A stretch of DNA of 64,000 nucleotides from Thermoanaerobaculia bacterium (GCA_963664405.1 OY761158.1:6716314-6780313), one strand, 5' to 3'; positions 5,119-51,460 are shown, numbered from the stretch's first letter. Numbers and translations are program-made. Notes: generated from the letters alone by a model not told the origin.

Positions 5119-5681
5119 TGCGTAAGTCCCTGACCCAGATCAAGCTCCTTCGGTCTCGCCGCGAAGACGGCAGTGCCTACATCATCGCGTTGATGGCGCT
5201 CTTTCTGCTCACGATTCTCGGCATCTCCGTGAGCCTGGTCACTCAGACGGAGATCCTCGCGAGTAGTCAGGAACGGACCATCGAGCGGACTTTTTACGCC
5301 GCCGAGGCCGGCCTGGAGATGGCGATTGCCCGTGCTCTCGGTCAGGGTGACTATGGTCCAGCCACTCACATCGCCCAGCGCACCGAGCTCGAGCAGGGAG
5401 CCATCATGCAGATGCAGGAGCGTGCCGACAGCTCGACTTTCTTCTGCATCGGTGACTCTCCTTGTAATCTCTGCTCGATCAACCAGGGCAGCCAGTGGGT
5501 CCGGCGCAACCATATGCTGTCGGTGAACGCGGTGCGCTCGGGTGTCGACGCCGGGGTAGATGTGCCCGTCGGCCGGAAATCTCTAACCGACATGGTGGAC
5601 ATCGAGCCGACCCAGGTGATCGTCGACTGTCTGGCCGACCTCCCTGATTCGACCAGCGGTTTTCGCTTCGACGAGTTCTAA
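5118..5681 (+). CDS. PilX-like minor pilin
   Basis: EDG|SAYIIAL without Glu+5, FYAAEAGLE PilX N-terminal motif. Confidence 0.8.
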   Translation: MRKSLTQIKLLRSRREDGSAYIIALMALFLLTILGISVSLVTQTEILASSQERTIERTFYAAEAGLEMAIARALGQGDYGPATHIAQRTELEQGAIMQMQERADSSTFFCIGDSPCNLCSINQGSQWVRRNHMLSVNAVRSGVDAGVDVPVGRKSLTDMVDIEPTQVIVDCLADLPDSTSGFRFDEF

Positions 5682-6481
5682 CGCGACCGACCCGAGTCGC
5701 GAAGGTAGGCACTCGCTTCGAGCAGACCGGCCCCATGGCCTACGTCAAAGAGTGGCGGCGGAATAAGCGCACCCTTGACTCGGCCCTCGAGGGCCAATTT
5801 CTGGTACACGGGCACCTCGTCGTATTCCCCCGAGATGGACGGCCGCAACAGGTCGATCACGCCGAAGACCTCCGGGGCGCAAACATAGCGGCCGCAGGTA
5901 CGAAGAATTCGTTCGCCGGGATCGATCTCGAGAAGGCCTGGCTTCTTGTCGTGAATGCGCTCGACCTGGAGCGTGTCCGGGCTCAGGCGGCGCCAGTCGA
6001 TTCGCCCGCAATTGCCGTAGAGGCCCGAAGAGGACTCGTCGAGATCGAGGACGCCGAGGACGTGGTGTCCGCTCTCCTCGAATACTTGAAGCATGCGGGC
6101 CAGGGAGTAGGTTGGAGAAAGTGGAAGATTATCGGGTAAAAGGAGCGCGAAGGGCTCTTCGGCGGTGAAGTCTCGGCACAGTGATACGGCTTCCGCCAAG
6201 CCGTTGGGGACTTCTTGCTCCAAGAAACGGATTCTCAGCTCTGGCCAGTGGCCCTCATCCTGTTGCGCCCCGATATAGCGTTCGATGAGGATTCCTTTGC
6301 CCCGGCGCGTGACAATTGCTGCCTCGACCAGTCCACCCTCAGCGGCTTCGCTGAGAACCCAGTCGAGCGTCGGGCGGCTGCCGAGAGGCGCGAGCTCTTT
6401 GGGCACAACGCTCGAGAAGGGGCGCATTCTGGTGCCACGTCCGGCGGCGGGGATGACGGCTTTGCGGACTTGACGAGACAT
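5678..6481 (-). CDS. Sugar-1-phosphate nucleotidyltransferase, GalU-like
   Basis: KAVIPAAGRGTRMRP..PKEL, EQEVPNGLAEAV, FALLLPDN, CGRYV, DVG. Confidence 0.85.
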   Translation of the reverse strand: MSRQVRKAVIPAAGRGTRMRPFSSVVPKELAPLGSRPTLDWVLSEAAEGGLVEAAIVTRRGKGILIERYIGAQQDEGHWPELRIRFLEQEVPNGLAEAVSLCRDFTAEEPFALLLPDNLPLSPTYSLARMLQVFEESGHHVLGVLDLDESSSGLYGNCGRIDWRRLSPDTLQVERIHDKKPGLLEIDPGERILRTCGRYVCAPEVFGVIDLLRPSISGEYDEVPVYQKLALEGRVKGALIPPPLFDVGHGAGLLEASAYLRDSGRSR

Positions 6482-6492
6482 CGGCCGCGAGA

Positions 6493-7521
6493 TTGTACGG
6501 CATGGACGTGAGAAGATCTGCCGCCGTGAGGACTTTCCTCAGATGCTCCTTGCGGGCCATCTCCGCGCTGCTAGTGGCCTTTTCACTTTCCTGCGGCGGA
6601 GGCGGCGCGGTCAAGGTGCTCGCCCTGGCTCATGGGCTCGACCCTTCCCATCCGGTCCACAAGGCGATGGAGTTTCTCGCCACCCGCCTCGACGAGAGCT
6701 CGGGCGGCAGCTTGCAGCTTCGCATCTACCCGAGCGAGCAATTGGGGAGCGAGCGCGAGTGCCTGGAGCTACTCCAGATCGGCAGCTTGGCGATGACCAA
6801 GGTCTCGGCGAGCGTGCTGGAGTCGTTCTCTCCCGCCTTTGGAGTCCTCTCGCTGCCCTTTCTCTTTTCCGACCGAGATCACGTGTGGGAGGTCCTCGAC
6901 GGCGAGATCGGTCGTGACCTCTTGGCCGAGCCGCTGCAGTATCGCTTACGAGGGTTGGCCTTTTATGACGCTGGGAGTCGCAGTTTCTACACCACGAGCC
7001 GGCCGGTGCGGAGCCCGGAGGATCTGCAAGGGCTCAAGATCCGGACCATGGAGAGCGCGACCGCCATGGATATGGTGAGGGCGTTGGGGGGCTCTCCGAC
7101 GCCGATATCTTGGGGAGAGATCTATAGCGCCCTGCAGCAAGGGGTGGTCGATGGCGCCGAGAACAACCCGCCGAGCTTTCATCTTTCGAGACACTACGAA
7201 GTGGCGAAGTACTACTCGCTCGACGAGCACACTTCGGTACCGGACGTGCTTCTGATCGGCAGAGCGGCATGGGAGGCGCTCGATTCCCGAGAACGGGAGC
7301 TGCTGTCGGCGGCGGCGCGAGAGTCCGCCGAGTATCAAAAGATACTGTGGCGAGCCGCTGAGAAGACAGCCCTCGATGCGGTCCAGGAGGCAGGCGTCGA
7401 GGTCCTGAGGCCGAGCAAGCAGCCGTTCATGAAAGAAGTCGAGGAGCTTCTGGAGGCGCGGCGCGCGGACCCTGAAGTCGGCCCCTGGATGCGCCGCATT
7501 CAGGGTGAAAGAGAGAATTGA
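6493..7521 (+). CDS. dctP: TRAP transporter solute-binding lipoprotein (DctP)
   Basis: Lipobox SLSC, IYPSEQLGSERE, DLQGLKIRTM (carboxylate-binding Arg), YSALQQGVVDGAENN. Confidence 0.95.
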   Translation: MYGMDVRRSAAVRTFLRCSLRAISALLVAFSLSCGGGGAVKVLALAHGLDPSHPVHKAMEFLATRLDESSGGSLQLRIYPSEQLGSERECLELLQIGSLAMTKVSASVLESFSPAFGVLSLPFLFSDRDHVWEVLDGEIGRDLLAEPLQYRLRGLAFYDAGSRSFYTTSRPVRSPEDLQGLKIRTMESATAMDMVRALGGSPTPISWGEIYSALQQGVVDGAENNPPSFHLSRHYEVAKYYSLDEHTSVPDVLLIGRAAWEALDSRERELLSAAARESAEYQKILWRAAEKTALDAVQEAGVEVLRPSKQPFMKEVEELLEARRADPEVGPWMRRIQGEREN

Positions 7522-7985
7522 TGCGGGGCCTCAGAGAGCGGGTGGATCGGCTTCTGGAGCGCGTACTCGCCACCTTGATGGCCCTGATGGTGATCAATGT
7601 GTGCTGGCAGGTGGTGACTCGCTTCATTCTTCGCCAGCCAAGCTCGTTTACCGAGGAAGCCGCCCGCTTCTTGTTGATCTGGGTCGGGCTCCTCGGAGCG
7701 AGCTACGCGCTGGGGCAGCGGATGCACCTGGCGATCGACGTGCTGGCGCGATGGAAACCGAGTTGGCGTCCGGGGCTCAGGATTACCAGCCTCGCTGTCA
7801 CCGCGACCTTCGCCCTCTTGGTACTGGGAGTGGGCGGAGCGCGCCTCGTGCTGCTCACTTTGGAGCTGGGACAAACTTCCGCCGCCTTGGGCTGGAGCCT
7901 GGGCTACGTGTATCTGGCGCTGCCGCTCAGCGGACTCCTCATGACCTTCTATGCCCTGAGTGAGCTATCGGAGCCGGCTCAGTAA
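7518..7985 (+). CDS. dctQ: TRAP small permease (DctQ)
   Basis: QVVTRF..FTEEAARFLLIW..H LAID; four hydrophobic segments. Confidence 0.93.
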   Translation: MMRGLRERVDRLLERVLATLMALMVINVCWQVVTRFILRQPSSFTEEAARFLLIWVGLLGASYALGQRMHLAIDVLARWKPSWRPGLRITSLAVTATFALLVLGVGGARLVLLTLELGQTSAALGWSLGYVYLALPLSGLLMTFYALSELSEPAQ

Positions 7986-9295
7986 TGGTTGATCTCGCGA
8001 GTGTCGGAGTCCTTGGGGGTGTCTTCCTGGTGGTGATGGCGCTAGGAGCACCGATCGCGATAGCGGTGGGGACCGCCGCGACGGCAACCCTTCTCCTCGG
8101 AGGATCGCCGCTGCCCGTAGTGACGACGATCTCTCAGCGCGTCGCAACGGCTCTCGATTCCTTCTCGCTGCTCGCCATCCCCCTATTCATACTGTCTGGC
8201 CAGTTGATGAATCGGGGAGGTGCCGCGAGGCGCCTTCTCGAATTCGGTAAGGCTCTGGTAGGTGCGCTCCCGGGTGGGCTGGTCCTGGTCAATATCGTTG
8301 GCTGTCTCCTCTTTGGTGCGATCTCGGGCTCGGCGGTGGCCACTGCCGCGGCTATCGGCGGCTTCATGATTCCGCTGATGGAAGAGGAGGGATATGGACG
8401 AGACTACGGTACGGCGGTCAACATAACGGCCTCCACCACAGGACTTCTAATCCCGCCGAGCAACATTCTGATCGTCTACTCGCTTGCCAGCGGAGGAGTC
8501 TCGATCGCTGCGCTGTTTCTCGCCGGCTATCTACCCGGCCTCCTGGTTGGTGCCTGTGTGGCGTCGGCCGCGGTGGTCCTGGCTCGGATACGCGGTCTCG
8601 AGGTAGCACGGATACCCTGGAATACCGGCGCGACACTGCGCAGTGGAATCGCGGCACTTCCCAGCTTGCTACTGGTAGTGGTGGTCATGGGAGGAATCAT
8701 CGGCGGCGTGTTCACGGCTACGGAGGCAGCGGGAGTCGCGGTTGTCTACGCCCTTCTCTTGTCTCTCTTGGTGTATCGAGAGATCTCGGTTCGGGAGTTG
8801 CCAGCCATTCTGGTCGAGGCCTCCGCCACCACTGGAGTTGTTCTCATTCTGGTCGGGGCCTCGATGGCGCTTTCGTGGGTGATGGCCTTCGAGAACATCC
8901 CGCAGGGCGTAGCGGAGCTGATGCTCTCCCTTGCCGCGGGTCCGATCGCTGTTCTACTGGTAATGAATGTGGTGCTTTTGGCTGTCGGAACGTTCATGGA
9001 CATGACTCCGGCTGTGCTTATCTTTACGCCGATCTTCCTGCCGGTGGCGATCGAAATGGGCGTCGATCCGGTCCACTTCGGGGTGATCATGGTGCTCAAT
9101 TTGTGTGTCGGTCTGTGCACTCCACCGGTTGGCACCGTTCTCTTCGTCGGCTGCGGAGTCGGAGAGACGACCCTCTCGCGAGTGCTGCCAAGTCTGCTGC
9201 CGCTCTACGCAGCCATGCTCGTCGCGCTGGTGTTGGTGATGAGTCTGCCGGAGCTCAGTCTCTGGCTTCCCCGAACGTTTGGCTTTCTTCCTTAG
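7985..9295 (+). CDS. dctM: TRAP large permease (DctM)
   Basis: LAIPLFILSGQLM, GAISGSAVAT, LIPPS, GVFTATE, DPVHFG, TPPVG. Confidence 0.96.
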   Translation: MVDLASVGVLGGVFLVVMALGAPIAIAVGTAATATLLLGGSPLPVVTTISQRVATALDSFSLLAIPLFILSGQLMNRGGAARRLLEFGKALVGALPGGLVLVNIVGCLLFGAISGSAVATAAAIGGFMIPLMEEEGYGRDYGTAVNITASTTGLLIPPSNILIVYSLASGGVSIAALFLAGYLPGLLVGACVASAAVVLARIRGLEVARIPWNTGATLRSGIAALPSLLLVVVVMGGIIGGVFTATEAAGVAVVYALLLSLLVYREISVRELPAILVEASATTGVVLILVGASMALSWVMAFENIPQGVAELMLSLAAGPIAVLLVMNVVLLAVGTFMDMTPAVLIFTPIFLPVAIEMGVDPVHFGVIMVLNLCVGLCTPPVGTVLFVGCGVGETTLSRVLPSLLPLYAAMLVALVLVMSLPELSLWLPRTFGFLP

Positions 9296-9316
9296 CTTGA
9301 CGCCTCTTCCTCCGAG

Positions 9317-10501
9317 TTGATCAACATGAAGACCCTGGTATGCGATCGATTTCGTGACCACTTCAAGCGCCCTCCTGAGCTCGTTGTGCGCGCCCCTGGT
9401 CGCGTCAATCTGCTAGGCGGACACATCGACTACAACGACGGATGGGTGCTCCCAGCCGCGATCGACCGCTCTCTCTGGCTCGCGGCCGCGCCTCGTCGGG
9501 ACGCAAGGCTTCACGCCTACTCGGCGACGGTCGAGGAGGGAGGCGAAGCCGCCTTGGACCCTCCGCCGCCGCCGCCGAAGATCGCTCACCGTCCGCGAGA
9601 GCGGTGGATCGAGTATCCGACAGGAGTAGCGTGGGCCTTGAGTCAGGACGGGCACGCGCTTTGCGGCATGGACGCCATGGTTGTTAGCGAGATCCCGGTG
9701 GGGGCAGGGCTGAGCTCTTCCGCCGCTCTGGAGGTCGCCTTTCTTCTGGCCTGGCGCGAGCTCGCGGGCCTTCCTCTCGAAGGCGCGGAGATGGCTCGTC
9801 TCGGCGAGCGGGTGGAGAACGATTATCTCGACGTACATTCCGGCGTGATGGATCAGTTTGCCAGCCTCCACGGACGGCGCGAGCACGCGATCTTTCTCGA
9901 CTGCCGCAACCTGGATTGGGAGCTCTTGCCGCTGCCGCCGCGAGTAGCGGTGCTGGTAGCCGACACGGGCATTCGCCGGCAGCTCGTCGGAGGCCACGTC
10001 AATGACCGGCAAGCGGAGTGCACGGAGGCCCTGAGGCGACTGCGTGAGCTTGGATGCGAGATTCGTGCGCTTCGCGATCTTCAGTCGGAGCAGCTCGAAT
10101 GCCTGGCCGATAAGCTGCCAGACTCATTGGCGCGCAGAGCGCGCCACGTCGTAGAAGAATGCTCGAGAGTCTGTCGCGGAGCGCAGTCGATTCGCGAGGG
10201 AGGCGGCGGCGAGGTGCTTGGAGCGCTGATGCGAGCGTCCCATGCGAGCTCGCGAGATCTTTATCAGGTCAGTACCCCCGAGCTCGATCTCCTGGCCGAG
10301 GCCGCGAGTGAGCTCGAAGGTTGCTTCGGGGCTCGCCTGGCCGGCGCCGGGCTTGGAGGGTGTGTCTCGGTACTGGTGGAAGAATGGGCAGCAGGGCCGG
10401 TCTCCACCGGGCTGAAGAAGGCGTTCTCCGAGCGCTTCGGCAACGAGCCCGAGATCCACCGAGTTGGGATCGGAGACGGTGCCGAGGCCTGGAATATCTG
10501 A
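9317..10501 (+). CDS. GHMP-family sugar 1-kinase, galactokinase-like with altered specificity residues
   Basis: APGRVNLLGGHIDYNDG, IPVGAGLSSSAALEV, SGVMDQ, RARHVVEE, SHASSRDLYQVSTPELD, GARLAGAGLGG. Confidence 0.88.
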   Translation: MINMKTLVCDRFRDHFKRPPELVVRAPGRVNLLGGHIDYNDGWVLPAAIDRSLWLAAAPRRDARLHAYSATVEEGGEAALDPPPPPPKIAHRPRERWIEYPTGVAWALSQDGHALCGMDAMVVSEIPVGAGLSSSAALEVAFLLAWRELAGLPLEGAEMARLGERVENDYLDVHSGVMDQFASLHGRREHAIFLDCRNLDWELLPLPPRVAVLVADTGIRRQLVGGHVNDRQAECTEALRRLRELGCEIRALRDLQSEQLECLADKLPDSLARRARHVVEECSRVCRGAQSIREGGGGEVLGALMRASHASSRDLYQVSTPELDLLAEAASELEGCFGARLAGAGLGGCVSVLVEEWAAGPVSTGLKKAFSERFGNEPEIHRVGIGDGAEAWNI

Positions 10502-12274: not shown

Positions 12275-12387
12275 TATCCTAGCGCACTGCCGGGCCCCCT
12301 GGCGCGCCGATGTGAGAAGATCCGCCGGCGGTGCGGCGCGCCTCTAGATTGCCACGAAAAGAAGCACCGAACAAGGAGACCCGACCG

Positions 12388-13191
12388 ATGAGGACGCTAG
12401 TGTGCCTTAAACAGATTCTCGATCCAGACCTGCCGGCTCGAGACTTCCAGATCGACGCTGAGAGCCGAGAGGCGAAGCAGGGCTCGGCGAATTTGGTCAC
12501 CAACATCTTTTGCGAGAACGCGCTGGAAACTGCATTACAGCTTCGCGATCGCGTGGGAGGTGAGATCACTGCCCTCTGCTACGGCGGCGAAAAGGCCGAA
12601 GACGTACTGCGCAAAGCGCTGGCCATGACGGCTGACAATGCCGCTCTGGTAAGCCGTGAAGGAGTGAGCAATCCTGACTCGCTAGCGGTGGCCAAGGTGC
12701 TGGCGGCGGCGATCCGCAAGCTAGGCGACTTCGACCTCATTCTTGTCGGCCGTGAATCGGGCGATTGGGGGGTCGGTCAGACCGGAGGGCTCCTCGCTGA
12801 GGAGCTCGGCATGCCGTGCCTGACTCTGGTAGACGAGATCGAGGCAGAGGGGGAGGGTCTGCGCCTGCGTCGTCAAAGTGATGTTGGTTTCGAGATCGCG
12901 GAGTGCAGCTCGCCGGTGGTTGCGACCATCACCAATCACGAGGCGAACGTTCCGCGCATACCCAAGACACGGGACGTGATGATGTCGTACCGCAAACCCT
13001 TGACCCAGTGGACACACGCTGACCTCGAGCTCGACAACGAGGTGGCCGGGGGGCGGTCCTACTACGAGGTAGTGGAGCTCTTCGTGCCGACCAAAGACAT
13101 CGAATGCGAGTTTGTCGAGGGCGACGACCTGAACGAGAGAGTCGCGAGCCTTGCTGGAAAGTTGTCCGCGGTTGCTGACGCGGTGAGTTGA
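12388..13191 (+). CDS. etfB: Electron transfer flavoprotein beta subunit (copy 1)
   Basis: VCLKQ, ALETALQLRD, LRKALAM, LVGRESGDWGVGQTG; RBS AAGGAG before ATG. Confidence 0.93.
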   Translation: MRTLVCLKQILDPDLPARDFQIDAESREAKQGSANLVTNIFCENALETALQLRDRVGGEITALCYGGEKAEDVLRKALAMTADNAALVSREGVSNPDSLAVAKVLAAAIRKLGDFDLILVGRESGDWGVGQTGGLLAEELGMPCLTLVDEIEAEGEGLRLRRQSDVGFEIAECSSPVVATITNHEANVPRIPKTRDVMMSYRKPLTQWTHADLELDNEVAGGRSYYEVVELFVPTKDIECEFVEGDDLNERVASLAGKLSAVADAVS

Positions 13192-13204
13192 GGAGAGCGG
13201 GAAA

Positions 13205-14167
13205 ATGAGTATAGCTATCGTTCTTTTTGGAGAGTACGGCTTCGACCGGGCGGTCGCGGGCGTGATCGGCTGTGGTCAGGCGCTGAAGGCGACTACTGGC
13301 GGGGAGATCGTCGCGGTGGTCATCGGGGCCCCGGCCGGGGAGATGACCAGCGAAGTCGCCGGGCGTGTCGACCGAGTGATCGTGGCATCGCAGCCGGAGC
13401 TGGGGGAGTATCAGCCCGAGACGGCCATCGATGCAATGAAGCAGATTCTCGCGCCGCTGGGGGCAAGCATCGTGCTTCTCGGCAACGATACCTACAGTCA
13501 AGAAGTGACGCCGCGGCTGGCCTCGCGTCTCGGCGGTAGCTCCCTGGCGGATGCCGTTGAGGTGAAATCTGTTAACGGCGCCGTTCATGCCATTCGCTCG
13601 GCCTACGGCGGTAAGGCGATGGCGACCTACGAGCTCAAGCGCAGTCCGGCGGTGGTGTGGGTGCGAGCGCGTGCCCTTGCACCGGCCGAGCCTACCGGCG
13701 CCGTCGCCACGATGGAGGAGACGTCGGTGAATCTCGGTGAGGCAGCACTTCGCATTGTCGAGCGCCGCGCCGAGGTGCAGGAGGGCGTGCGTCTCGAGGA
13801 TGCACAGATCATCGTTTCGGGTGGAAGGGGCCTCGGCGGCCCCGAGCCCTTCGAAATGCTGAAAGAGCTTGCGCAGGTACTCGGAGCCGAGCAGGGAGCC
13901 TCCAGAGCGGCTTGCGATGCCGGCTGGGTTCCGCCTTCGTGGCAGGTCGGCCAAACTGGCAAGAAGGTAGCGCCGGAGCTGTACCTCGCTATCGCGATCT
14001 CGGGAGCGAGTCAGCATCTTCTCGGCATGGGCGACTCCAAGGTGATCGCGGCCGTGAACACAGACGGAGATGCCCCAATCTTCAAGCACTGCAGCTTTGG
14101 TATTGTAGAGGACTACAAGAATGTCGTTCCGCTCCTTACCGAGAAGCTCGCAGAAATGAGGAAATGA
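13205..14167 (+). CDS. etfA: Electron transfer flavoprotein alpha subunit (copy 1)
   Basis: IIVSGGRGLG, GASRAACDAGW, QVGQTGK, LYLAIAISGASQH. Confidence 0.96.
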   Translation: MSIAIVLFGEYGFDRAVAGVIGCGQALKATTGGEIVAVVIGAPAGEMTSEVAGRVDRVIVASQPELGEYQPETAIDAMKQILAPLGASIVLLGNDTYSQEVTPRLASRLGGSSLADAVEVKSVNGAVHAIRSAYGGKAMATYELKRSPAVVWVRARALAPAEPTGAVATMEETSVNLGEAALRIVERRAEVQEGVRLEDAQIIVSGGRGLGGPEPFEMLKELAQVLGAEQGASRAACDAGWVPPSWQVGQTGKKVAPELYLAIAISGASQHLLGMGDSKVIAAVNTDGDAPIFKHCSFGIVEDYKNVVPLLTEKLAEMRK

Positions 14168-16218
14168 ACGCCGCCGAGGCCACTCGCGAAGTATTTTGGA
14201 ACATCTCCCACGTCTGGGTGATGTATGCGCTTCTGGTCCCGACGGGTCTCGTAGGCGGCTTCGGGCTTTACCGAAAGTTTCGTCTGTGGAGGCTCGGCGC
14301 GCCGACGCCTCGCTTCGATCAGATTGGCCGCCGAGTGCGCTTGGTAGTCGAGCAGGCGCTGATGCAACGGCGCACCGCGAAGGTGAGCTACGCCGGTGCG
14401 TTTCATCTGATGATCTTCAGCGGCTTCATCATCCTCACGATCGCGACCATCGTGGTGATGATTCATGCTGATTTCAAGCTCGAGATCATGCGCGGTGGGT
14501 TCTACCTGGTCTTTCAGTCGTTCATTGTCGATATTTTCGGCGGGCTGGTTCTCGTCGGCGTCGGCATGGCGGCCTGGCGACGGCTTCGCAGTCGGCCTGG
14601 GCACCTGGTCTATACCGACGAGGCGACCGGGATCCTGTTGACGATCTTCGTCATTGTACTCAGCGGTTTTCTGCTCGAGGGCTGGCGTATCGCCGCCACC
14701 GACGATCCTTGGGGGCACTGGTCACCCCTCGGCTACCTGGTGGCTGAGGGCTCAAAGGCGGTGATGAGTACTGGCTCGATCACCGTTGCTCACCTCGGCC
14801 TGTGGTGGTTCCACCTCGTGATCGTTCTCGCTTTTCTCGCCTGGGCTCCGTACACCAAGATGAGTCATGCTGTGACCGCCCCGCTCAATATCTTCACCGC
14901 CAATCTGGGCGGCTACGGCGGGAGCCTCAAGCGGATCGACTTCGAGACTGCTGAAAGCTTCGGGGTGAACTCTCTGACCGACTTCACCTGGAAGGATCTG
15001 CTGGATCTCGACGCTTGCACCGAGTGCGGTCGCTGCACCTCGGTCTGCCCTGCCAACGCCGTGGGGAAAGAGCTGTCGCCTCGGGATCTCATCCTCGATC
15101 TTCGCAGCCTCCTTCACAAGAGCGAGAAGGCGCTCTTGGCCTCGGCCTCTGGAGAGGCTAAGGAGGGGGAAGATGCCGGCGCTACGGCGGTCCCCATCAT
15201 CGACGAGTCGACAGCGGTGTCGTCGGAGGCTCTCTGGCAGTGCACGACCTGTGCTGCTTGCATGGAAGCCTGCCCGGTCTATATCGAGCAGATGCCCAAG
15301 ATCGTCGATGCTCGGCGCTACCTGGTGATGGAGAAGGCAGAGTTTCCCGAGAGTTTGCAAAATGTGATCCTTTCCCTCGAACAACGCGGTCATCCTTTTC
15401 CGGGCACTACCTTCTCGCGAATCGACTGGGCGGAGGGTCTCGACATCCCGGTAATGGCAGATCTGGAGGACACGGCGGAGGCCGAGGTGTTGCTCTGGGC
15501 GGGCTGCGGCGGCGCCCTGGTCGAGCGTAACCAGTCTACGATCCGCGCCACCGCCCAGCTGCTCCAGAAGGCGGGGGTGAAATTTGCCATTCTGGGTCGG
15601 GAAGAGAGCTGCACCGGCGATCCGGCGCGTCGCATCGGTAATGAGTTTCTTTTTGAAATGCTCGCCAAGGGGAACGTCGAGACCTTGGACGGCTACGGCG
15701 TGAAGAAGATCGTGACTTCCTGCCCGCACTGTTTCAACACCTTTGCCAATGAGTACCCCGACCTTGGCGGAAGCTACGAAGTCCATCACCACAGCGCTTT
15801 TCTGAAGCAGTTGGTCGACGAGGGCAAGCTCGTGCCAGAAGCGGAGGACGGGCGCACAGTCACCTTTCACGACCCCTGCTATCTCGGGCGTCACAATGGC
15901 ATCTTCGATGCCCCTCGAGAGCTAGTCCAGCTCTCCAGCCGATCTCCGGCTAGGGAGATGCCGAAGAGTCGGGAAGAGAGCTTTTGCTGTGGCGGCGGTG
16001 GCGGCATGTGTTACGTCGATGAGCGGCCGGATCAGCGGGTCAACCAGGAGAGGGCTCAGCAGGCCCTCGACACCGGCGCTGATGTGGTAGCGGTCGGTTG
16101 CCCGTTCTGCACCACCATGCTCGAGGACGGGATTGCGGCTCGCAAGGGGGATCGCGAGGTCCAAGTGCTAGACGTCGCTGAACTATTGCTCGGCGCGGTC
16201 GAAAACGGCGGCGCCTAG
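14164..16218 (+). CDS. Membrane-bound Fe-S oxidoreductase (FadF/HdrD-like, ETF:quinone oxidoreductase type)
   Basis: N-terminal TM helices with His; CTECGRCTSVCP and CTTCAACMEACP; CCG domains (ESCTGD, CPHC, HDPCYLGR, FCCGGGGG, GCPFC); ATG overlaps the etfA stop. Confidence 0.9.
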   Translation: MNAAEATREVFWNISHVWVMYALLVPTGLVGGFGLYRKFRLWRLGAPTPRFDQIGRRVRLVVEQALMQRRTAKVSYAGAFHLMIFSGFIILTIATIVVMIHADFKLEIMRGGFYLVFQSFIVDIFGGLVLVGVGMAAWRRLRSRPGHLVYTDEATGILLTIFVIVLSGFLLEGWRIAATDDPWGHWSPLGYLVAEGSKAVMSTGSITVAHLGLWWFHLVIVLAFLAWAPYTKMSHAVTAPLNIFTANLGGYGGSLKRIDFETAESFGVNSLTDFTWKDLLDLDACTECGRCTSVCPANAVGKELSPRDLILDLRSLLHKSEKALLASASGEAKEGEDAGATAVPIIDESTAVSSEALWQCTTCAACMEACPVYIEQMPKIVDARRYLVMEKAEFPESLQNVILSLEQRGHPFPGTTFSRIDWAEGLDIPVMADLEDTAEAEVLLWAGCGGALVERNQSTIRATAQLLQKAGVKFAILGREESCTGDPARRIGNEFLFEMLAKGNVETLDGYGVKKIVTSCPHCFNTFANEYPDLGGSYEVHHHSAFLKQLVDEGKLVPEAEDGRTVTFHDPCYLGRHNGIFDAPRELVQLSSRSPAREMPKSREESFCCGGGGGMCYVDERPDQRVNQERAQQALDTGADVVAVGCPFCTTMLEDGIAARKGDREVQVLDVAELLLGAVENGGA

Positions 16219-30474: not shown

Positions 30475-30870
30475 ATGCGACCGGACTACCGACTCTTCGA
30501 CTGTGCTCGATGCCGTCGGCGTATCTCGCTGTGCTCGCACTGTGACCGTGGCCAGCGTTACTGCCGGGCTTGTGCTCTGGTGGCTCGTCGGGAATCGACT
30601 CGGGCGGCCGGCCATCGGTACCAGCGAAGCCTCCGAGGTCGGCATTGTCATGCCGCCCGTCAGGCCCGCTACCGTCGGCGCCAGCGCGAGCGGGCAGAGA
30701 AAGTGACGCATCAGGGTACCCCAGGCGGTACTTCGGGGAGGACACTGTGTCGGATCGAGACTCCGAGGCGCGAAGTGCGCTACGACCCGAGGAATCCGCG
30801 ATGCATGCAGTGTGGAGAGGCCTGCCGAGAGTTTGTGCGAACGAGCTTTCGTCGTTGCCGACGGAGATAG
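30475..30870 (+). CDS. Cys/Arg-rich putative zinc-binding accessory protein of the IS21 element
   Basis: CARC..CSHC..YC..C and CMQC..C; RBS GGGAGG; ends 4 bp before istA. Confidence 0.7.
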   Translation: MRPDYRLFDCARCRRRISLCSHCDRGQRYCRACALVARRESTRAAGHRYQRSLRGRHCHAARQARYRRRQRERAEKVTHQGTPGGTSGRTLCRIETPRREVRYDPRNPRCMQCGEACREFVRTSFRRCRRR

Positions 30871-30874
30871 GGGC

Positions 30875-32383
30875 GTGATCGACGCACAGCTGCGCGGGGA
30901 GATCCGTCGTCTGTTCCTGGTCGAGAAGTGGAAAGTCGGCACGATCGCTCGACAGCTACAGCTGCACCCCTCAACCGTGCGCCGGGCGCTGGAGAAGTCC
31001 GGCGTGCTACCCCAGCAGCGACGAGGGAGGATGATCGATCCTTACCTGCCGTTCATCGAGCAGGTGCTCGGGACCTACCCACGACTGCCGGCGAGCCGTC
31101 TCTACACCATGGTGGTGGAGCGCGGCTATCCAGGAGGCCCGGATCAGTTTCGCCACCTGGTGGCCTCGATGCGACCGAAGCCCCAGCGCGAGGCGTTTCT
31201 CTCGCTGCGCATGCTGCCAGGAGAGCAGGCGCAGGTCGACTGGGGCCACTTCGGTCGGCTCCGCGTCGGCCGGGCACATCGTCGGCTCTATGCCTTCGTC
31301 TTCGTGCTGTCGTTCTCGCGCACGGTCTTCGTGCACTTCACCCTCGACACTCGTCTCGAAACCTTCTTGCACGCTCACCAGCTGGCCTTCCACTACGTCG
31401 ACGGCGTCGTCAGGACCGTTCTGTACGACAACCTGCGAACCGCGGTGATCGAGCGGCAGGGAACCGCGGTGCGCTTCCATCCCGTGCTGCTCGATTTCGC
31501 CAGCCACTACGGCTTCCTTCCCACCGTCGCCGCGGTGGCTCGGGGAAATGAGAAAGGCCGCGTCGAGCGCGCAATCCGCTTCCTGCGAAGCTCGTTCTTC
31601 GGCGCCCGAACGGTGAGCGATTTGGATCGTCTGAATCGGCAGGTCCTGGAATGGTGCCAGAGGTCGCAGCGCAGACCCTGGCCGCAGGACCGACAGCGAA
31701 CCGTGAAAAGCGCCCTGGCCCAGGAACGACCTCGACTGCTTGAGCTTCCCGGAGACGACTTCGAAACCGACCTGCGACTGGAGATCAAGGTCAGAAAGAC
31801 GCCGATCGTGCGCTTCGACCTCAACGACTACTCGGTGCCGCACAGTCATGTGCAGAGGACCGTCACGCTCCTCGCCAGCGAGCATCGGGTGCGGATCCTC
31901 GATGGCCAGGAGCTCCTCGCCGAGCACCCTCGCTCGTACTCCCGGGGCGAGCAGATCCTCGATCCTCAACACCTCGAGGAGCTCCTCGCTCACAAACGCA
32001 GGGCCCGACGACACCGGGGCTTCCATCGGCTGTTTTCCGCTGTGCCTCGATGCGAAGAGCTGATGCAGCAGCTCGCCGAGCGAGGCGAGAACCTCGGAAC
32101 GCAGACCGCCGGCCTGCTCCGACTCCTGCGCCAGTACGGCCCCCAGCGACTCGACAAAGCCGTGCGCGAAGCGCTCCTGAACCACGCACCGCGATTCCAG
32201 TCCGTCCGGCTCCTACTCGAACGGCACCAGCGCGGCCTCGGTCAGCCCCCGGCTTTACCGGTGCCGCTCAGCCAGGAGCTCCAACAGCGAGATCTCTCCG
32301 TGAGACCGCACAACCTCGAGGACTACGACCAACTTGGAGGCAACGACGATGGCCCGACCCAGGAAGAGTCCAACGATCCCTGA
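30875..32383 (+). CDS. istA: IS21 transposase IstA
   Basis: N-terminal HTH, PGEQAQVDWG, LYDN, KGRVER, VRFDLNDYSVP. Confidence 0.96.
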   Translation: MIDAQLRGEIRRLFLVEKWKVGTIARQLQLHPSTVRRALEKSGVLPQQRRGRMIDPYLPFIEQVLGTYPRLPASRLYTMVVERGYPGGPDQFRHLVASMRPKPQREAFLSLRMLPGEQAQVDWGHFGRLRVGRAHRRLYAFVFVLSFSRTVFVHFTLDTRLETFLHAHQLAFHYVDGVVRTVLYDNLRTAVIERQGTAVRFHPVLLDFASHYGFLPTVAAVARGNEKGRVERAIRFLRSSFFGARTVSDLDRLNRQVLEWCQRSQRRPWPQDRQRTVKSALAQERPRLLELPGDDFETDLRLEIKVRKTPIVRFDLNDYSVPHSHVQRTVTLLASEHRVRILDGQELLAEHPRSYSRGEQILDPQHLEELLAHKRRARRHRGFHRLFSAVPRCEELMQQLAERGENLGTQTAGLLRLLRQYGPQRLDKAVREALLNHAPRFQSVRLLLERHQRGLGQPPALPVPLSQELQQRDLSVRPHNLEDYDQLGGNDDGPTQEESNDP

Positions 32384-33143
32384 CGAACCACTACGAGAGC
32401 TCGCCCGATCCCTCGGCTTCTACGCCCTCGTCGACGACTGGGGCACCTACCGAGAACAGCCCTGGCTCGAACAGCTGCTGCGCAAAGAAGAGGCCGAGCG
32501 CAAACGGCGCAGCCTCGAACGGCGCATCCGCACCAGCCGCGTCGGGCTCTTCAAGAGCATCGCCGACTTCGACTTCTCCTGGCCCCAGCGCATCGACCGC
32601 GAGCAGATCCAGGATCTGCTCACCCTCCAATTCCTCGACGACATCACCAACGTCATCCTCCTCGGACCCAACGGTGTCGGCAAGACCATGATTGCCAAGA
32701 ACCTCCTCTACCAGGCGCTGCAACGAGGGGCCACCGCCAGCTTCGTCACCGCCTCCGACATGCTCAACGATCTCGCCGTCCAGGAAACCCCCTCGGCGCT
32801 CCAGAGAAGGCTCTCCAAATACACCCGACCCTCGCTTTTGGCAATCGATGAGCTCGGCTATCTCTCCTACGACCACCGCCACGCGGATCTCCTCTTCGAG
32901 GTCGTCTCCAGGAGATACGGCAACAAGCCCATTCTTCTCACCACCAACAAGCCCTTCGCCGAATGGGCCGAGGTCTTTCCCAACGCCTCCTGCGTCGTCA
33001 CTCTCGTCGATCGACTCACCCACCACGCCGAGATCGTCAAGATCGAGGCTAACTCCTATCGCCGCAAGGAGGCCAAGGAGGCTGCTGAAAAAAAGGCCAA
33101 GGACCGCGCCAAAAGGCGGAGCGCAGCACGACGACGCTCATGA
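32349..33143 (+). CDS. istB: IS21 ATPase IstB
   Basis: FDFSW, GPNGVGKT, LLAIDELGY, TTNKPF.EW, DRLTHH. Confidence 0.97.
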   Translation: MARPRKSPTIPDEPLRELARSLGFYALVDDWGTYREQPWLEQLLRKEEAERKRRSLERRIRTSRVGLFKSIADFDFSWPQRIDREQIQDLLTLQFLDDITNVILLGPNGVGKTMIAKNLLYQALQRGATASFVTASDMLNDLAVQETPSALQRRLSKYTRPSLLAIDELGYLSYDHRHADLLFEVVSRRYGNKPILLTTNKPFAEWAEVFPNASCVVTLVDRLTHHAEIVKIEANSYRRKEAKEAAEKKAKDRAKRRSAARRRS

Positions 33144-39549: not shown

Positions 39550-40347
39550 ATGAAGACCGCTGTTTGCATGAAGCAGGTGCCGGATACAGAGGCGCGCCTC
39601 CGCCTCAATAAGGCGGGAACCTGGATCGAGGAAGAGGACCTGCCCTTCGTTATCAACGAGAGCGACGAGTGCGCCCTCGAGGAGGCACTGAACATCCGCG
39701 AGCAGCGCGGAGGGGAGGTGACGGTCTACAGCCTCGGACCGCCGCGGGTCCGCGAGTCGCTGCGCAAGGCCCTCGCGCTCGGGGCCGATCGGGCCGTTCA
39801 CCTCGACGATGAGGCCTTTGCTGGCGGCGATGCGGTGGCAAACGCGCGGGCGCTGGCGGCGGCTATCTCGAAGCAGCCGGTCGACCTCATCCTAACCGGC
39901 TCGCAGTCGGATGATCTCGGCTGGGGGGTGACGGCGTCGCTGCTCGCCGCCAACCTCGATTTCCCCCACGCCTGGCTGGTCATGGGAGTCGAGATCGATG
40001 AGGCCGGCGAGAAGGTGGGCATCGTCAGAGAGATGGAGGCCGGCAAGAACGAGCTCTTCAATCTTTCTCTGCCGGCGGTGATCGAGGTCCAGGCCGGGCT
40101 CAATCATCCCCGCTACGCCTCTCTCAAGGGAATCATGCAGGCGAAGCGCAAGGAGATCATGGCGCTCTCAGCGGCAGACCTCGATCTCGAAGCGGATCAG
40201 GTCGGGGCTCGGGGCTCCAGGGTCGAGATCGTTTCGGTCACCTTTCCCCGGACCGGCGAGGGCGCCACTATGATCGAGGGCGACCCGTCCACGGCAGCAG
40301 AGCAGCTGGTTCACCACCTCCAGAACGATGCGAGGGTGCTGTCATGA
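39550..40347 (+). CDS. etfB: Electron transfer flavoprotein beta subunit (copy 2)
   Basis: VCMKQVPD, ALEEAL, ALALGAD, GSQSDD, PRYASLKGIMQAK. Confidence 0.95.
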   Translation: MKTAVCMKQVPDTEARLRLNKAGTWIEEEDLPFVINESDECALEEALNIREQRGGEVTVYSLGPPRVRESLRKALALGADRAVHLDDEAFAGGDAVANARALAAAISKQPVDLILTGSQSDDLGWGVTASLLAANLDFPHAWLVMGVEIDEAGEKVGIVREMEAGKNELFNLSLPAVIEVQAGLNHPRYASLKGIMQAKRKEIMALSAADLDLEADQVGARGSRVEIVSVTFPRTGEGATMIEGDPSTAAEQLVHHLQNDARVLS

Positions 40348-41330
40348 GCGGCACGGTCTGGATCGCGGCCCAGCTGAGAGATGGCGGCCTACACCCGGCC
40401 AGCCTCGAGGCTGTTGCTGCGGGGCGGCAACTGGCGGAGGCCTTGGGGGTCGACGTGGAAGCGATCGTTGTCGGCGATGGAGTCGGTGTCGCCGCATCGC
40501 AGCTCGCCCGTTCGGGAGTTCGGCGGGTGTATGTGTCCGATCAGCCGAGTCTAGGGGACTACGTCCCGGGAACTCATGTTCAAGCACTGGTCGAGGCGGC
40601 CGAAGCGTACCGGCCATCCTATATCGTCTTCCCTCATACCTATCAGGCGGTGGATCACATGGCCCGTCTCGCCCATCGGCTCGATGGCGGGGTTCTCTCC
40701 GAGATCACTTCTTTCGCGTCGAGCGAAGAGGGGCTGCTGTTCAGTCGCCCGATTCTGGAGGGCAAGATGCAGGCGAAGACCCGTATCTGCGGCCTCGGCC
40801 CGATGGTCCTTTCGGTGCAGACCGGAGCCTTTCAGCCCGCCGAAGCAACCTCGGATGAGCCTGCCCCTATCGAGAGGCTCGAGGCGGCGAAGCTTCCGGC
40901 GCCCGAGCGCGAGCTTCTCGGTATCGAGGACGCCGGCGGCGAAAAGATCGATCTGACTGCCGCTGACCTGATCGTGTCGGTCGGTCGTGGCATCGGCGGT
41001 CCGGAGAAGATGGCGGTCATCGAAGAGTTGGCTGCCGCCCTGGGAGCAGAGATTGGCGCCAGCCGCCCCGTCATCGACAGTGGATGGCTGCCGCGGGATC
41101 GTCAGATCGGGTCGAGCGGTCAGACGGTGGCGCCCAAGCTCTACATCGCGATCGGCATCTCCGGAGCGATCCAGCATCTCGTCGGCATGAAGGGTGCGGC
41201 CTGCACGGTAGCGATCAACAAAGATGCGGGAGCCCCCATCTACAGCGTGGCCGACTACGGTATCGTCGGTGACCTCTTCGAGGTCGTACCGGCGTTGACC
41301 GCGGCGCTCAAAGAGGCCAGCTCCGATTGA
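40344..41330 (+). CDS. etfA: Electron transfer flavoprotein alpha subunit (copy 2)
   Basis: [38 protein letters not shown]. Confidence 0.95.
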
Positions 41331-42616: not shown

Positions 42617-42784
42617 AATGAACGAAACCGCTAACGCGGTGGAGACCGAGGCGTCCGGTCAGCCGTCGACGAGCCCTCGACTCTGCGGTCCTTTGGCTGC
42701 CGTTTGTCGCGCTACCGATAGGTTCTCCTGAAACCTCAGGTCCGTCCCATGTTGGGGCGACCGGTGCAGGAAAAGGAGAGCGTG

Positions 42785-43648
42785 ATGGGAGAGTTTCGCC
42801 AGCGTATGGAGGAGGACATGGAGATTCGCGGCTTCAGTCCTAATACTCAGCAGTGCTACCTCGGTCGGGTCAAGGAGTTTGTTCGTTACTACATGCGCCC
42901 ACCTAACGAGCTCGGCCTCGACGAGATCCATCGTTACCAACTTCATCTGACCCGTGAGCGCAAGGTCTCGTGGGCGGTGTTCAACCAGTCCGTGGGGGCT
43001 CTTCGTTTCTTTTACGGCGTCACCCTGCACAAGAGCTGGGACATCGGCCGGATTCCCTACCAGAAAACCCGAAGGAAACTCCCGGTGGTTTTGAGCCAGC
43101 AAGAGGTGGCAGCCATTCTAGATGCGCTGACGAATCTCAAACACCGAGCCATCCTGGCGACCGTCTACGCCGCTGGGCTACGGGTCTCGGAGGTCGTCGC
43201 CTTGCGAGTCTCCGACATCGATTCTCAGCGCATGATGCTACGCATCGAGCAGGGAAAGGGCCGCAAGGATCGCTACGTGATGCTCTCCGAGAGACTGCTC
43301 ACCGTTCTTCGTGAGTATTGGAAGACCACGCGGCCTCAGGACTGGCTCTTTCCTGGTCAGACTCCACCTCGACATCTGACTCGCAGCAGCGTCGAGCTGG
43401 TCTTCCATAAGGCAAGGGAGGCGGCAGGGATCACCAAGAAGGTGTCCGTGCACACTTTGCGACACAGCTTCGCGACCCACTTGCTCGAGAGCGGCGTCAA
43501 TCTCCGGAAGATCCAGATTCTGCTGGGCCACACGAGCCTGCGCTCGACACAGGTCTACACCCATGTTGCCAGCGATTTCCTCGACGAGACACCCTGTCCT
43601 CTGGATCTTCTCCCAGATCCCAAGAGCCGGTCGCACAGCACCGGCTGA
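42785..43648 (+). CDS. Tyrosine recombinase/integrase
   Basis: YAAGLRVSE, GKGRKDR, HTLRHSFATHLLE, IQILLGH, TQVYTH (R-K-H-R-H-Y set). Confidence 0.96.
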   Translation: MGEFRQRMEEDMEIRGFSPNTQQCYLGRVKEFVRYYMRPPNELGLDEIHRYQLHLTRERKVSWAVFNQSVGALRFFYGVTLHKSWDIGRIPYQKTRRKLPVVLSQQEVAAILDALTNLKHRAILATVYAAGLRVSEVVALRVSDIDSQRMMLRIEQGKGRKDRYVMLSERLLTVLREYWKTTRPQDWLFPGQTPPRHLTRSSVELVFHKAREAAGITKKVSVHTLRHSFATHLLESGVNLRKIQILLGHTSLRSTQVYTHVASDFLDETPCPLDLLPDPKSRSHSTG

Positions 43649-43651
43649 GCC

Positions 43652-44848
43652 GTGCACTGTCCAGCGAGCCGGCGCCGCGCCGGCCGCTCGAGTCTGGAGC
43701 TCGCCGACATCTTCCGAGAGCATGCCGGTCGGCTCCCCGCCTTGAGCGACCCGAGGGCGCGTGTGGTCCGAGACATTACCGCCTGCAGAACCGCTGCCCT
43801 CGGTGGACATCTGCACGAATGTGACACCTGCGGCCACGTGCTGGCTTCCTACAACAGCTGCCGCAACCGTCACTGCCCCAAGTGTCAGCACCTCGAGCAG
43901 GCGCGCTGGGTCGAGGCCCAGCGAGACGCGCTACTGCCCACCGAGTACCACCACGTCGTTTTCACGGTGCCCGACGTCCTGCACCCGATCTTTCTCGCCG
44001 ATCCCAAGCCGGCCTACAAGCTGCTCTTTGCCGCCGCGGCTGAGACTCTTCGCGAGGTCGCCTTGCGACCCAAGAACCTCGGAGCGAAGATTGGCTTCTC
44101 GGTCATCCTGCATACCTGGACGCAGAAGCTCCTCTATCACCCTCACCTTCATTGCATCGTGACCGGAGGAGGCCTCGACCCCGACGGCACCCGGTGGGTC
44201 GCGACGAAACCGCGTTTTCTCTTCTCGGTCCGAGTCCTCGCTACCGTCTTTCGGGGCAAGCTCCTACAAAAGCTCGAGCGGGCTCTTCGGGAGGGCGTGA
44301 TCCGCTCGGACGATCGCCCGCTGCTTCGCAAGGCGGCGCAGAAGAAATGGGTCGTCTACAGCAAGCCGCCCTTCGGCGGTCCAGAGCGCGTCCTGAAATA
44401 TCTCGGGCGATATACCCACTGCGTCGCTATCTCCAACAGCCGTCTGGTCTCACTCGAGAAAGGTCAGGTCACTTTCCGATGGAGAGACCGAGCCCACGGC
44501 AACCAAACCAAGCTCCTGCGTGTCGACGCAGGAGAATTCATCCGGCGCTTCCTCCTCCACGTCCTACCCAAGGGCTTCATGAGAATTCGACACTACGGAC
44601 TGCTCGCCAACCCGCTCAAACGCAAGCTCATTCCATTGTGCAGGCAGCTGCTAGGCGGCATGGCGGCGTACACCGATCAGACCACAGCCACGCCGCCGCT
44701 TGAAACCTGGCAACAGCTCCTCCAGCGACTGACCGGCGAAGACGTGACCCTGTGTCCGAAGTGCCGCAAGGGCCATCTCGTCATCACGCAAGACCTGCCC
44801 GCTTGCCTCTCCCCCTCGCCCGTTTTGAGCCGGGCAAGATCACCATGA
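43652..44848 (+). CDS. IS91-family rolling-circle transposase
   Basis: Zn domain CRTAALGG..C..C..SCRNRHCPKC, HVVFTVP, HTW, HUH motif HPHLH, Y2 motif YLGRY, RIRHYG. Confidence 0.96.
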   Translation: MHCPASRRRAGRSSLELADIFREHAGRLPALSDPRARVVRDITACRTAALGGHLHECDTCGHVLASYNSCRNRHCPKCQHLEQARWVEAQRDALLPTEYHHVVFTVPDVLHPIFLADPKPAYKLLFAAAAETLREVALRPKNLGAKIGFSVILHTWTQKLLYHPHLHCIVTGGGLDPDGTRWVATKPRFLFSVRVLATVFRGKLLQKLERALREGVIRSDDRPLLRKAAQKKWVVYSKPPFGGPERVLKYLGRYTHCVAISNSRLVSLEKGQVTFRWRDRAHGNQTKLLRVDAGEFIRRFLLHVLPKGFMRIRHYGLLANPLKRKLIPLCRQLLGGMAAYTDQTTATPPLETWQQLLQRLTGEDVTLCPKCRKGHLVITQDLPACLSPSPVLSRARSP

Positions 44849-50848: not shown

Positions 50849-50947
50849 TCAGCGAACCTAGCCCGGGGACCCTGCGTGCTCATGTCGGCCGGCAGACAAT
50901 GTTCCTAAATATCTGAATCCACGCAGTTAACGACACACTTCCAGGGA

Positions 50948-51460
50948 CTACATCTCATACTCGCCCAGATCATCAGGGTCGAGATCCTCCAATAGCTTTC
51001 GAATCCGTTCCTGCTCGTCACGCATGACGCTTTCATCGCCCGCCTTTGCCTTCTCGAGGACGGAAGAGGCGACCAGTACCGGAGCCGCAGTGCGAAGAGC
51101 GAGGGCAATCGCGTCGCTGGGTCGAGCATCGATCTCGAGAGTCTGGGACTCCCCCGCTCGCTGGACGTAGATGGTGGCGTAGAAGGTCTGGTCTCGAAGA
51201 TCCGCCACGACCACTTTCACCACCTCGGAGTTGAGGGCTGCCATGGTGGTCGCTAGTAGATCGTGGGTGCGCGGCCTTGGCGACTCCGAGGACTCGAGGC
51301 CAAGTTGGATTGCGCTCGCTTCAAAGAGCCCGATCCAGATCGGAAGAAAGGCTTGAGATTCCGGGTCTTTGAGAATGACGATCGGGTTATTCGACGAAGG
51401 ATCGATCATCAGGCCTTTGACTTCCATCAGAATCAGGTCGTCTGGGTCGCGTGTCGTCAT
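50948..51460 (-). CDS. Bifunctional nuclease family protein (DUF151)
   Basis: LPIWIG..EA, RPRTHDL, FYA, IDARPSDAIALALR. Confidence 0.93.
   Translation of the reverse strand: MTTRDPDDLILMEVKGLMIDPSSNNPIVILKDPESQAFLPIWIGLFEASAIQLGLESSESPRPRTHDLLATTMAALNSEVVKVVVADLRDQTFYATIYVQRAGESQTLEIDARPSDAIALALRTAAPVLVASSVLEKAKAGDESVMRDEQERIRKLLEDLDPDDLGEYEM

Follow-up and report, generated by a model that had tools for sequence, protein, structure and literature searches.

A candidate hexuronate salvage cluster coupling a TRAP importer to a galactokinase-family kinase and a GalU-like nucleotidyltransferase in Thermoanaerobaculia

A galactokinase-like gene placed behind a TRAP (tripartite ATP-independent periplasmic) transporter operon raises the question of which sugar its product phosphorylates, and to what end. 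The gene lies in a 64,000-nucleotide stretch of a Thermoanaerobaculia genome (GCA_963664405.1, OY761158.1:6716314-6780313), which as a whole is called the window here and from whose first letter positions are counted. The interval 5678-10501 of the window holds five open reading frames (ORFs): one minus-strand nucleotidyltransferase gene (P0001), followed on the plus strand by dctP (P0002), dctQ (P0003), dctM (P0004) and the kinase gene (P0005). The ORFs and their Pfam domains bear out the five genes and the position of the kinase after dctPQM, as described in an earlier note made from the DNA alone. That note had proposed TRAP import, 1-phosphorylation and nucleotide activation in place of Leloir catabolism, and this continues to be the best-supported reading, given a recurring gene linkage, a glucuronate/galacturonate-type binding protein and the lack of GalT, UxaC or KduI matches in the genome. 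We infer which substrate each enzyme takes, which anomeric position is phosphorylated, that the nucleotide is UTP, and that the purpose is salvage as opposed to catabolism.

In the proposed pathway, DctPQM would import free hexuronate (D-glucuronate and/or D-galacturonate). The GalK-family kinase, whose sugar pocket would be without the two groups that hold galactose, namely the Glu at O6 and the Tyr hydroxyl at O4, would phosphorylate the hexuronate at C1 with ATP. The divergently encoded GalU-like nucleotidyltransferase would then join the uronate-1-phosphate with UTP to yield UDP-uronate for glycan synthesis. Conversion of uronate through uronate-1-phosphate to UDP-uronate is, judged from the sequences, the best reading of the cluster, and one that we hold with moderate confidence.

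The kinase ORF (9317-10501, plus strand) spans 394 residues. Its likely start is ATG 9326, which gives a protein of 391 residues and matches a 98%-identical database protein of that length. Pfam recognizes GalKase_gal_bdg (E 2.1e-20), GHMP_kinases_N (E 9e-20) and GHMP_kinases_C (E 9.1e-07), and the best solved relatives are galactokinases (E down to 2.8e-67), in keeping with its assignment to the galactokinase family of the GHMP superfamily. The protein scores below the cut-off for four of five galactokinase equivalogs (NF003705, 302.7 against 385 bits; NF003472, 294.9 against 499; NF003006, 291.1 against 443; NF001816, 223.4 against 509), and above it for TIGR00131 (268.1 against 226.65 bits). 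In galactokinases a Glu holds galactose O6, and a Tyr, paired with Asp, acts at the sugar 4-OH; plant galacturonokinase (GalAK) is reported to be a GalK-like enzyme with a small residue replacing this Glu. In P0005 the first motif, GRVNLLGGHIDYN, covers residues 28-40 (G-R-V-N-L-L-G-G-H-I-D-Y-N), so that Gly35 (codon 9419-9421) stands in place of the Glu of the G-R-x-N-L-I-G-E-H-x-D signature, exactly as the earlier note had read it. The second motif singled out there, HVNDRQAEC, is literally present as residues 227-235, but its comparison with an 8-letter YNxRRxEC consensus was off by one, the motif having nine letters. In HMMER alignments with human galactokinase chains, Val228 (9998-10000) pairs with the Tyr of ...SEYPVRRRQC... 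and His227 with the preceding Glu, making Val228 the Tyr equivalent. The predicted protein thus has neither the Glu nor the Tyr of a canonical galactokinase (EC 2.7.1.6). R29, H36, D38 and D179, which we take to be the galactokinase contacts to sugar O1-O4, are invariant in the kinase alignment.

These replacements characterize a clade and not a single protein. In a FastTree phylogeny of 156 kinases, P0005 falls with a support of 100 in a clade of 57 rows, drawn from Thermoanaerobaculia and other Acidobacteriota, some Chloroflexota and one Planctomycetota. Position 35 of the clade is Ala in 50 rows, Gly in six and unread in one, and Glu in none of the 57, as compared with 72 of 72 Glu-type relatives. 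The Tyr column is Tyr in 71 of the 72 Glu-type kinases; in the clade it is Phe in 38 rows, Tyr in 14, Leu in four and Val in one. That Phe, Leu or Val is so often found in this column would suit an enzyme less strict about the 4-OH, which may therefore accept gluco- as well as galacto-configured uronates. The clade-specific changes (I33L, E35A/G, T37V, D41E, F43W, F170Y and C175S) are concentrated in the sugar-binding signature and in the G-x-M-D-Q loop. Among the 121 nearest database proteins, position 35 is Ala in 81, Gly in 27, Glu in six, Ser in one and unreadable in six.

At least two further losses of the Glu are seen in the tree, one in a Planctomycetota-rich clade of 20 rows and the other in a small actinobacterial clade. 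The former, a second and separate Ala-type clade (e.g. L171, L186, L199 and L206), has G-R-A-N-L-L-G-A-H-M-D as its motif and mainly Phe in the Tyr column. The 8-kb blocks around its members contain no TRAP, GalT or P0001-type nucleotidyltransferase gene, and aminotransferase and HEAT-repeat genes recur nearby. Three contigs of actinobacterial metagenome-assembled genomes (L184, L214 and L231) encode galT-adjacent kinases in which Gly stands for the Glu and Trp for the Tyr, and which look like Leloir kinases without either of the classic galactose contacts.

The transporter points to the likely substrate. DctP (6493-7521, plus strand, 342 residues, likely start ATG 6502; Pfam DctP, E 6.7e-82) carries a lipoprotein-like signal ending in ...SLSCGGGG. 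DctQ, the small membrane subunit (7518-7985, plus, 155 residues; Pfam DctQ, E 8.2e-28), and DctM, the large one (7985-9295, plus, 436 residues; Pfam DctM, E 7.6e-113), complete the system, DctM scoring 427.9 bits against the TIGR00786 cut-off of 268.45. The top solved relatives of DctP are 4n8y (E 3.4e-70), 4ovr and 4x8r, and the 12 best (E 3e-70 to 3e-56) form one TRAP binding-protein group; the ligands assigned to 4ovr, 4xfe, 4p1l, 4ovq and 4pf8 are provisional. One report describes 4N8Y as galacturonate-bound and 4X8R as glucuronate-bound (PMC11668362). In another, 4N91 binds glucuronate and 4MHF binds both glucuronate and galacturonate, organic acids are the ligands of TRAP binding proteins that carry the conserved Arg, and the glucuronate-binding triad is Arg150, Arg170 and Asn210 (PMC7660916). 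The carboxylate Arg that the earlier note had recognized in DctP is indeed kept, as R184 (7042-7044, within LKIRT), the counterpart of the Arg in the aligned 4n8y chain. R163 (6979-6981) and N224 (7162-7164) fill the other two triad positions; placed on the triad from their spacing and from the alignment with 4n8y, the three residues lie 21 and 40 positions apart, compared with 20 and 40 in the triad.

Orthologues of this transporter in relatives adjoin genes of uronate metabolism. In G057, a genome without the kinase, the orthologous TRAP (binding protein 51% identical) sits in a lacI-dctPQM-pfkB-uxaC arrangement (L339). It adjoins kduI in G009 and G002, a short-chain dehydrogenase/reductase (SDR) gene and pfkB in G015, and a Gfo/Idh/MocA oxidoreductase gene in G014, G005 and G004. 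Because uxaC, kduI and pfkB are neighbours of the orthologous TRAPs, the binding-protein group appears to travel with uronate metabolism. The binding proteins linked to the kinase in L119 and L123 are 40-44% identical to P0002 and find their best matches in the same solved uronate group. From its nearest solved relatives and the uxaC and kduI neighbours of its orthologues, DctP is a candidate binder of the glucuronate/galacturonate type. About 2 kb from the TRAP operon of one relative (G042; L331, 11847-14882), we also noted a gene for a 1,011-residue protein with nitric-oxide synthase oxygenase and FAD-binding reductase domains.

The nucleotidyltransferase P0001 (5678-6481, minus strand, 267 residues; Pfam NTP_transferase, E 1.6e-15) is a GalU-like sugar-1-phosphate nucleotidyltransferase and the proposed UDP-uronate pyrophosphorylase. 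Its best NCBIfam match is galU (TIGR01099), and because the score of 103.5 bits is far below the cut-off of 326.8, the protein is classified as other than a canonical GalU; NF009928 gives 55.7 bits against 548. Its best solved relatives are YngB/GalU chains. Aligned with YngB, it keeps the N-terminal G-x-G-T-R loop, the Gln before G-L and the G-R-Y strand, and G14, G16, R18, Q89, G94, L95, G197 and R198 are invariant in eight of eight orthologues. Orthologues occur in 12 of 61 relatives, ten of which carry the kinase too. None was found in the other 49, including all 22 genomes of genus g11, and a housekeeping GalU role was rejected on this ground. No fused kinase-nucleotidyltransferase was matched at E 1e-10 in a search of longer proteins, nor does a fused form occur among the 150 best of 37,854 relatives (953 strong). 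The six longest of these 150 (321-525 residues) are without a GHMP domain, and one carries a metallo-beta-lactamase-fold domain.

The transporter and kinase genes look co-transcribed, since dctP and dctQ overlap by four bases, the dctM start overlaps the dctQ stop, and the gap between dctM and the kinase is 21-30 bp with no terminator-like site seen in it. The earlier note had placed the kinase head-to-head with the nucleotidyltransferase. A divergent pair does exist, its start codons (6481 on the minus strand and ATG 6502 on the plus strand) being separated by a 20-bp spacer read directly from the sequence (6482-6501), but the partner of the nucleotidyltransferase gene is dctP and not the kinase. 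A consensus scan found no sigma-70-like site in this spacer.

The linkage of these genes was evaluated by pooling 193 kinase records into 158 distinct ones, with identical kinases counted once and neighbours taken within 7 kb; genes on high-GC loci were called with a codon-usage model. Many loci are 8-kb blocks or short contigs, and the linkage counts are lower bounds. A uronate-type TRAP lies near 13 of the distinct kinases, a P0001-type nucleotidyltransferase near 18 and both near 11, so the co-occurrence in other genomes that the earlier note had named as a check does recur. The counts divide by the residue at position 35. For 73 kinases with Glu, GalT was near in 32 cases and the nucleotidyltransferase, the TRAP or both in none. 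For 68 kinases with Ala, GalT was near in none, the nucleotidyltransferase in 13, the TRAP in 11 and both in ten. The ten kinases with Gly had GalT near in three cases, the nucleotidyltransferase in four, the TRAP in two and both in one, which is the window itself. Within the tree, galT adjoins none of the 57 members of the clade of P0005, versus 32 of 72 Glu-type kinases, and the TRAP-linked kinases come from no fewer than three sub-branches of that clade.

Gene order is not fixed among the linked loci. The nucleotidyltransferase gene is divergent from dctPQM-kinase in the window and in L112; in L119 the kinase is divergent from dctQM-P with the nucleotidyltransferase gene further on, and L123 has nucleotidyltransferase-kinase-dctQMP on one strand. 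Divergent, convergent and co-directional arrangements all occur. In a reciprocal scan, the kinase was found within 7 kb in 16 of 22 loci with a nucleotidyltransferase at least 42% identical; ten of the 16 also have the TRAP and three a glycoside hydrolase of family 2 (GH2), and most of the six loci without the kinase are contigs of 4-10 kb. When P0001 was the sole query, a locus scan gave eight distant loci (31-38% identity, mostly Nocardiopsis), which were not used. The kinase is present in 37 of 61 relatives, GalT in one, and UxaC in two, both without the kinase.

The rest of the genome, a single 6.78-Mb contig that is 97% complete, was searched for other fates of a uronate. It holds one GalK-like gene, three DctP genes and two Ugd-family genes, and no match to the GalT, UxaC or KduI families was found anywhere in it, which extends to the whole genome the earlier observation that no galT is nearby. 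KdgD is matched below its cut-off only, and the lone UxaA-family gene lies in an unrelated context among sulfotransferase and acyl-CoA genes. Because UxaC and KduI are unmatched, KdgD is below cut-off and the UxaA-family gene is out of context, an imported uronate would thus have no recognizable catabolic entry. UDP-uronates are probably made and used by the host, since there are two Ugd-family genes. The best GalU-like gene of the genome is P0001 itself, and the next is RmlA. The long UDPGP family has no match in the genome, a result that is uninformative since the same search was also negative in all 14 control genomes. In a lineage without a UxaC or KduI match, and with KdgD matched only below its cut-off, we give slightly better than even weight to the view that the cluster may be the only fate of imported glucuronate or galacturonate, either as the first dedicated bacterial pair of hexuronate 1-kinase and UDP-hexuronate pyrophosphorylase or also as the start of an undescribed catabolism at the nucleotide-sugar level.

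Several observations weigh against a dedicated uronate pathway. The comparison of clade-specific columns shows no conserved basic residue gained by the 57-row clade to hold a carboxylate. The three actinobacterial Gly-type kinases of L184, L214 and L231 directly adjoin galT; loss of the Glu is for this reason compatible with galactokinase function and not diagnostic, and the residue argument alone is insufficient. The changed specificity residues put forward in the earlier note as the sign of a uronate kinase thus stand, the Tyr replacement after correction of its register by one residue, but lose force as an argument, the Glu being absent from these galT-adjacent kinases as well. Hexuronate 1-kinase function of P0005 is accordingly described as a candidate supported by gene context. 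No gene in the genome scores as GalU above the cut-off, and for that reason glucose-1-phosphate could be an additional substrate of P0001. In G005, G007, G011, G014, G004, G042 and G047, the nearest orthologue of DctP is encoded far away from the kinase gene or on a different contig. A GH2 glycosidase is the neighbour of the kinase in five of the 57 clade members. These GH2s score about equally as beta-galactosidase GalA and as beta-glucuronidase LacZ4, both far below the NCBIfam cut-offs, and both activities are found among their solved relatives. The GH2 of L127 scores best as exo-beta-1,4-galactosidase (522.7 bits), and the two GH2s inspected have no N-x-K at the site of this motif in glucuronidases. 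A GH2 in place of the TRAP in some relatives would fit a glucuronidase feeding the same kinase core, although the typing of these enzymes is ambiguous. In 24 of the 57 clade members, all close to Candidatus Multivorans, the kinase occurs with a GH20-like gene and with neither the TRAP nor a P0001-type nucleotidyltransferase. It should also be mentioned that the loci were retrieved by searching with these very genes and that the genomes are related, so that the linkage counts are not independent.

Two side observations concern these neighbourhoods. In the Candidatus Multivorans-like loci (L117, L121, L130, L163, L211 and 19 further rows), the kinase lies behind the GH20-like gene, often together with a gene for a GyrI-like small protein and a YgjP-like gene; no P0001-type nucleotidyltransferase was found in 22 of 22 genomes of this genus. 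On a Gemmatimonadales contig (L306), a distant relative (34% identical) of the nucleotidyltransferase is found next to a GH2 and a Glu-type GalK, which may represent a pyrophosphorylase-type galactose route.

The same mechanism could serve a different acid sugar, such as mannuronate or guluronate from alginate, iduronate or an N-acetylhexosaminuronate, each converted to the matching nucleotide sugar. The sequencing runs listed as containing cluster DNA, none of them an RNA run, are labelled seawater and marine sediment, where such polymers are common; the orthologous TRAPs of G009, G002 and G015 adjoin kduI/kduD-like genes, which act on unsaturated uronate products; and N-acetylated sugars are hinted at for the branch of the Multivorans-like genomes by its GH20-like neighbours. 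TRAP sites are, according to PMC7660916, highly variable beyond the Arg. However, the nearest solved DctP relatives (E down to 1e-70) are all in the glucuronate/galacturonate group, the R-R-N triad of glucuronate binders is kept, and the orthologue in G057 adjoins uxaC, whose substrates are glucuronate and galacturonate. We regard another acid sugar as unlikely.

A bypass of the Leloir pathway would leave the TRAP adjacency irrelevant to the kinase substrate: a galactokinase, or a 1-kinase of galactose, xylose or arabinose, would act with a broad UDP-sugar pyrophosphorylase that replaces GalT. It would account for the kinase passing TIGR00131, for the Gly-type kinases in actinobacterial galT-galK operons and for the want of a GalU above cut-off in the genome. 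The GH2 neighbours, with the galactosidase-like enzyme of L127 among them, could be beta-galactosidases, and L306 sets a Glu-type GalK and a GH2 beside a distant nucleotidyltransferase. A bacterial GalK and glucose-1-phosphate uridylyltransferase pair also yields UDP-xylose in vitro, according to PMC11267548. Chance is nevertheless hard to invoke for 13 distinct kinases that have a uronate-type TRAP as neighbour and represent at least three sub-branches of the clade and several gene orders, when none of 73 Glu-type kinases has a TRAP or a P0001-type nucleotidyltransferase nearby; furthermore, TRAP binding proteins with the conserved Arg take organic acids (PMC7660916). Such a bypass seems quite unlikely to us. 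Entry into catabolism, as opposed to salvage, would have 1-phosphorylation and activation open an undescribed uronate degradation, for example by decarboxylation of UDP-glucuronate to UDP-xylose and on into pentose metabolism. A high-affinity uronate importer is kept even though UxaC and KduI are unmatched and KdgD lies below its cut-off, and with two Ugd-family genes making de novo UDP-uronate probably available, pure salvage would be less necessary. On the other hand, ATP and UTP spent on each sugar would be a high cost for catabolism, and neither the cluster nor its surroundings contain a gene for a decarboxylase, a phosphorylase or pentose metabolism, the flanks being pseudopilin, AceK and electron transfer flavoprotein (ETF) genes. 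We know of no uronate degradation route via a nucleotide sugar, and consider this alternative very unlikely.

With uronate activation for salvage as the preferred reading, the cluster can be compared with known systems. The Leloir GalK-GalT route uses a kinase of the same family and fold, with R29, H36, D38 and D179 kept, whereas the cluster kinase has Gly for Glu35 and Val for the Tyr, and the genome has no GalT match. AmgK-MurU salvages N-acetylmuramic acid (MurNAc) with an anomeric kinase and a uridylyltransferase, in two steps like the cluster, although AmgK is not known to be a GHMP kinase. MurNAc salvage was itself considered on account of peptidoglycan peptidases beside the cluster in L119. 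It was rejected: the binding proteins match hexuronate binders best, the MurU models score 36.2 bits against 103.5 for galU, and the kinase keeps the Asp that holds O3/O4. The TRAP hexuronate importers (Salmonella STM3169, the solved glucuronate/galacturonate binders and L339 in G057) belong to the same binding-protein group as DctP and share its R-R-N triad, but they feed uxaC/kdgK or kduI/kduD catabolism, whereas the cluster importer is proposed to feed an anomeric kinase and a nucleotidyltransferase.

The plant enzymes GalAK and glucuronokinase (GlcAK), together with UDP-sugar pyrophosphorylase, likewise employ a GHMP anomeric kinase followed by a pyrophosphorylase to form UDP-uronate, as described in PMC2823444 and PMC3938481. 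The cluster differs in being bacterial, in having its kinase clade inside the bacterial GalK family, in the partner being a short GalU-type enzyme of 267 residues, and in being joined to a TRAP importer in one gene cluster. Pieslinger et al. mention uncharacterized GlcAK-type homologues in "a few bacteria", which belong to a GHMP subfamily different from that of the cluster kinase (PMC2823444). Zebrafish GKUP, as presented in PMC3938481, also combines a uronate 1-kinase with a bacterial-type nucleotidyltransferase domain of about 260 residues, but in one polypeptide and with a kinase of the GlcAK subfamily, whereas the cluster has two separate genes; the authors of that study could not demonstrate the pyrophosphorylase activity. 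The Solitalea enzymes ScGalK and ScGPUT resemble the cluster in taking a sugar through the sugar-1-phosphate to the UDP-sugar, bypassing de novo synthesis, but represent in-vitro promiscuity of housekeeping enzymes on xylose and not a dedicated transporter-linked cluster (PMC11267548). A full-text literature search returned uronate 1-kinases only from plants, zebrafish and plant-enzyme cascades; subscription papers and supplements were outside this search, and a description in print is possible. We find it reasonably probable, with good support from gene context, that the cluster would be a bacterial variant of this known plant and animal salvage logic.

The arrangement of the cluster is not an assembly artefact, because a single contig of a separate study covers all of 5678-10501 with 54 substitutions and no insertion or deletion. 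The genes flanking it are unrelated, with pseudopilin-like genes ending at 5681 upstream, and a convergent aceK followed by ETF genes downstream. Elsewhere in the window there are two separate ETF beta/alpha pairs (12331-16218 and 39550-41330), the first of which is followed by a gene for a 768-residue protein with 4Fe-4S and CCG domains. Mobile elements are found at 30812-33143 and 42749-44848, comprising an IS21-like pair (Mu-transposase C-terminal domain and IstB) and a phage-type integrase beside an IS91-family transposase. The last 6,549 bases of the window (57452-64000), which are also the contig end, exactly copy 49654-56202, located 7,798 bases upstream. This stretch holds parB, parA, a bifunctional nuclease gene, a radical-SAM gene and ptsI, and the repeat is one of two things, an artefact of the assembly end or a genuine tandem duplication truncated where the contig stops.

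If confirmed, the proposed function would extend uronic-acid salvage by a kinase and a pyrophosphorylase from plants and lower animals to bacteria, in a version that would have evolved separately inside the bacterial galactokinase family and become hard-wired to a high-affinity importer. A soluble glucuronate/galacturonate 1-kinase with its own pyrophosphorylase would also offer a two-enzyme route to UDP-glucuronate and UDP-galacturonate for glycosaminoglycans and pectic oligosaccharides. For the family, the automatic name "galactokinase" would be corrected for a whole clade, considering that Ala or Gly takes the place of the Glu in 108 of the 121 closest database proteins. It would likewise explain why a GalK-like gene is kept in genomes without GalT.

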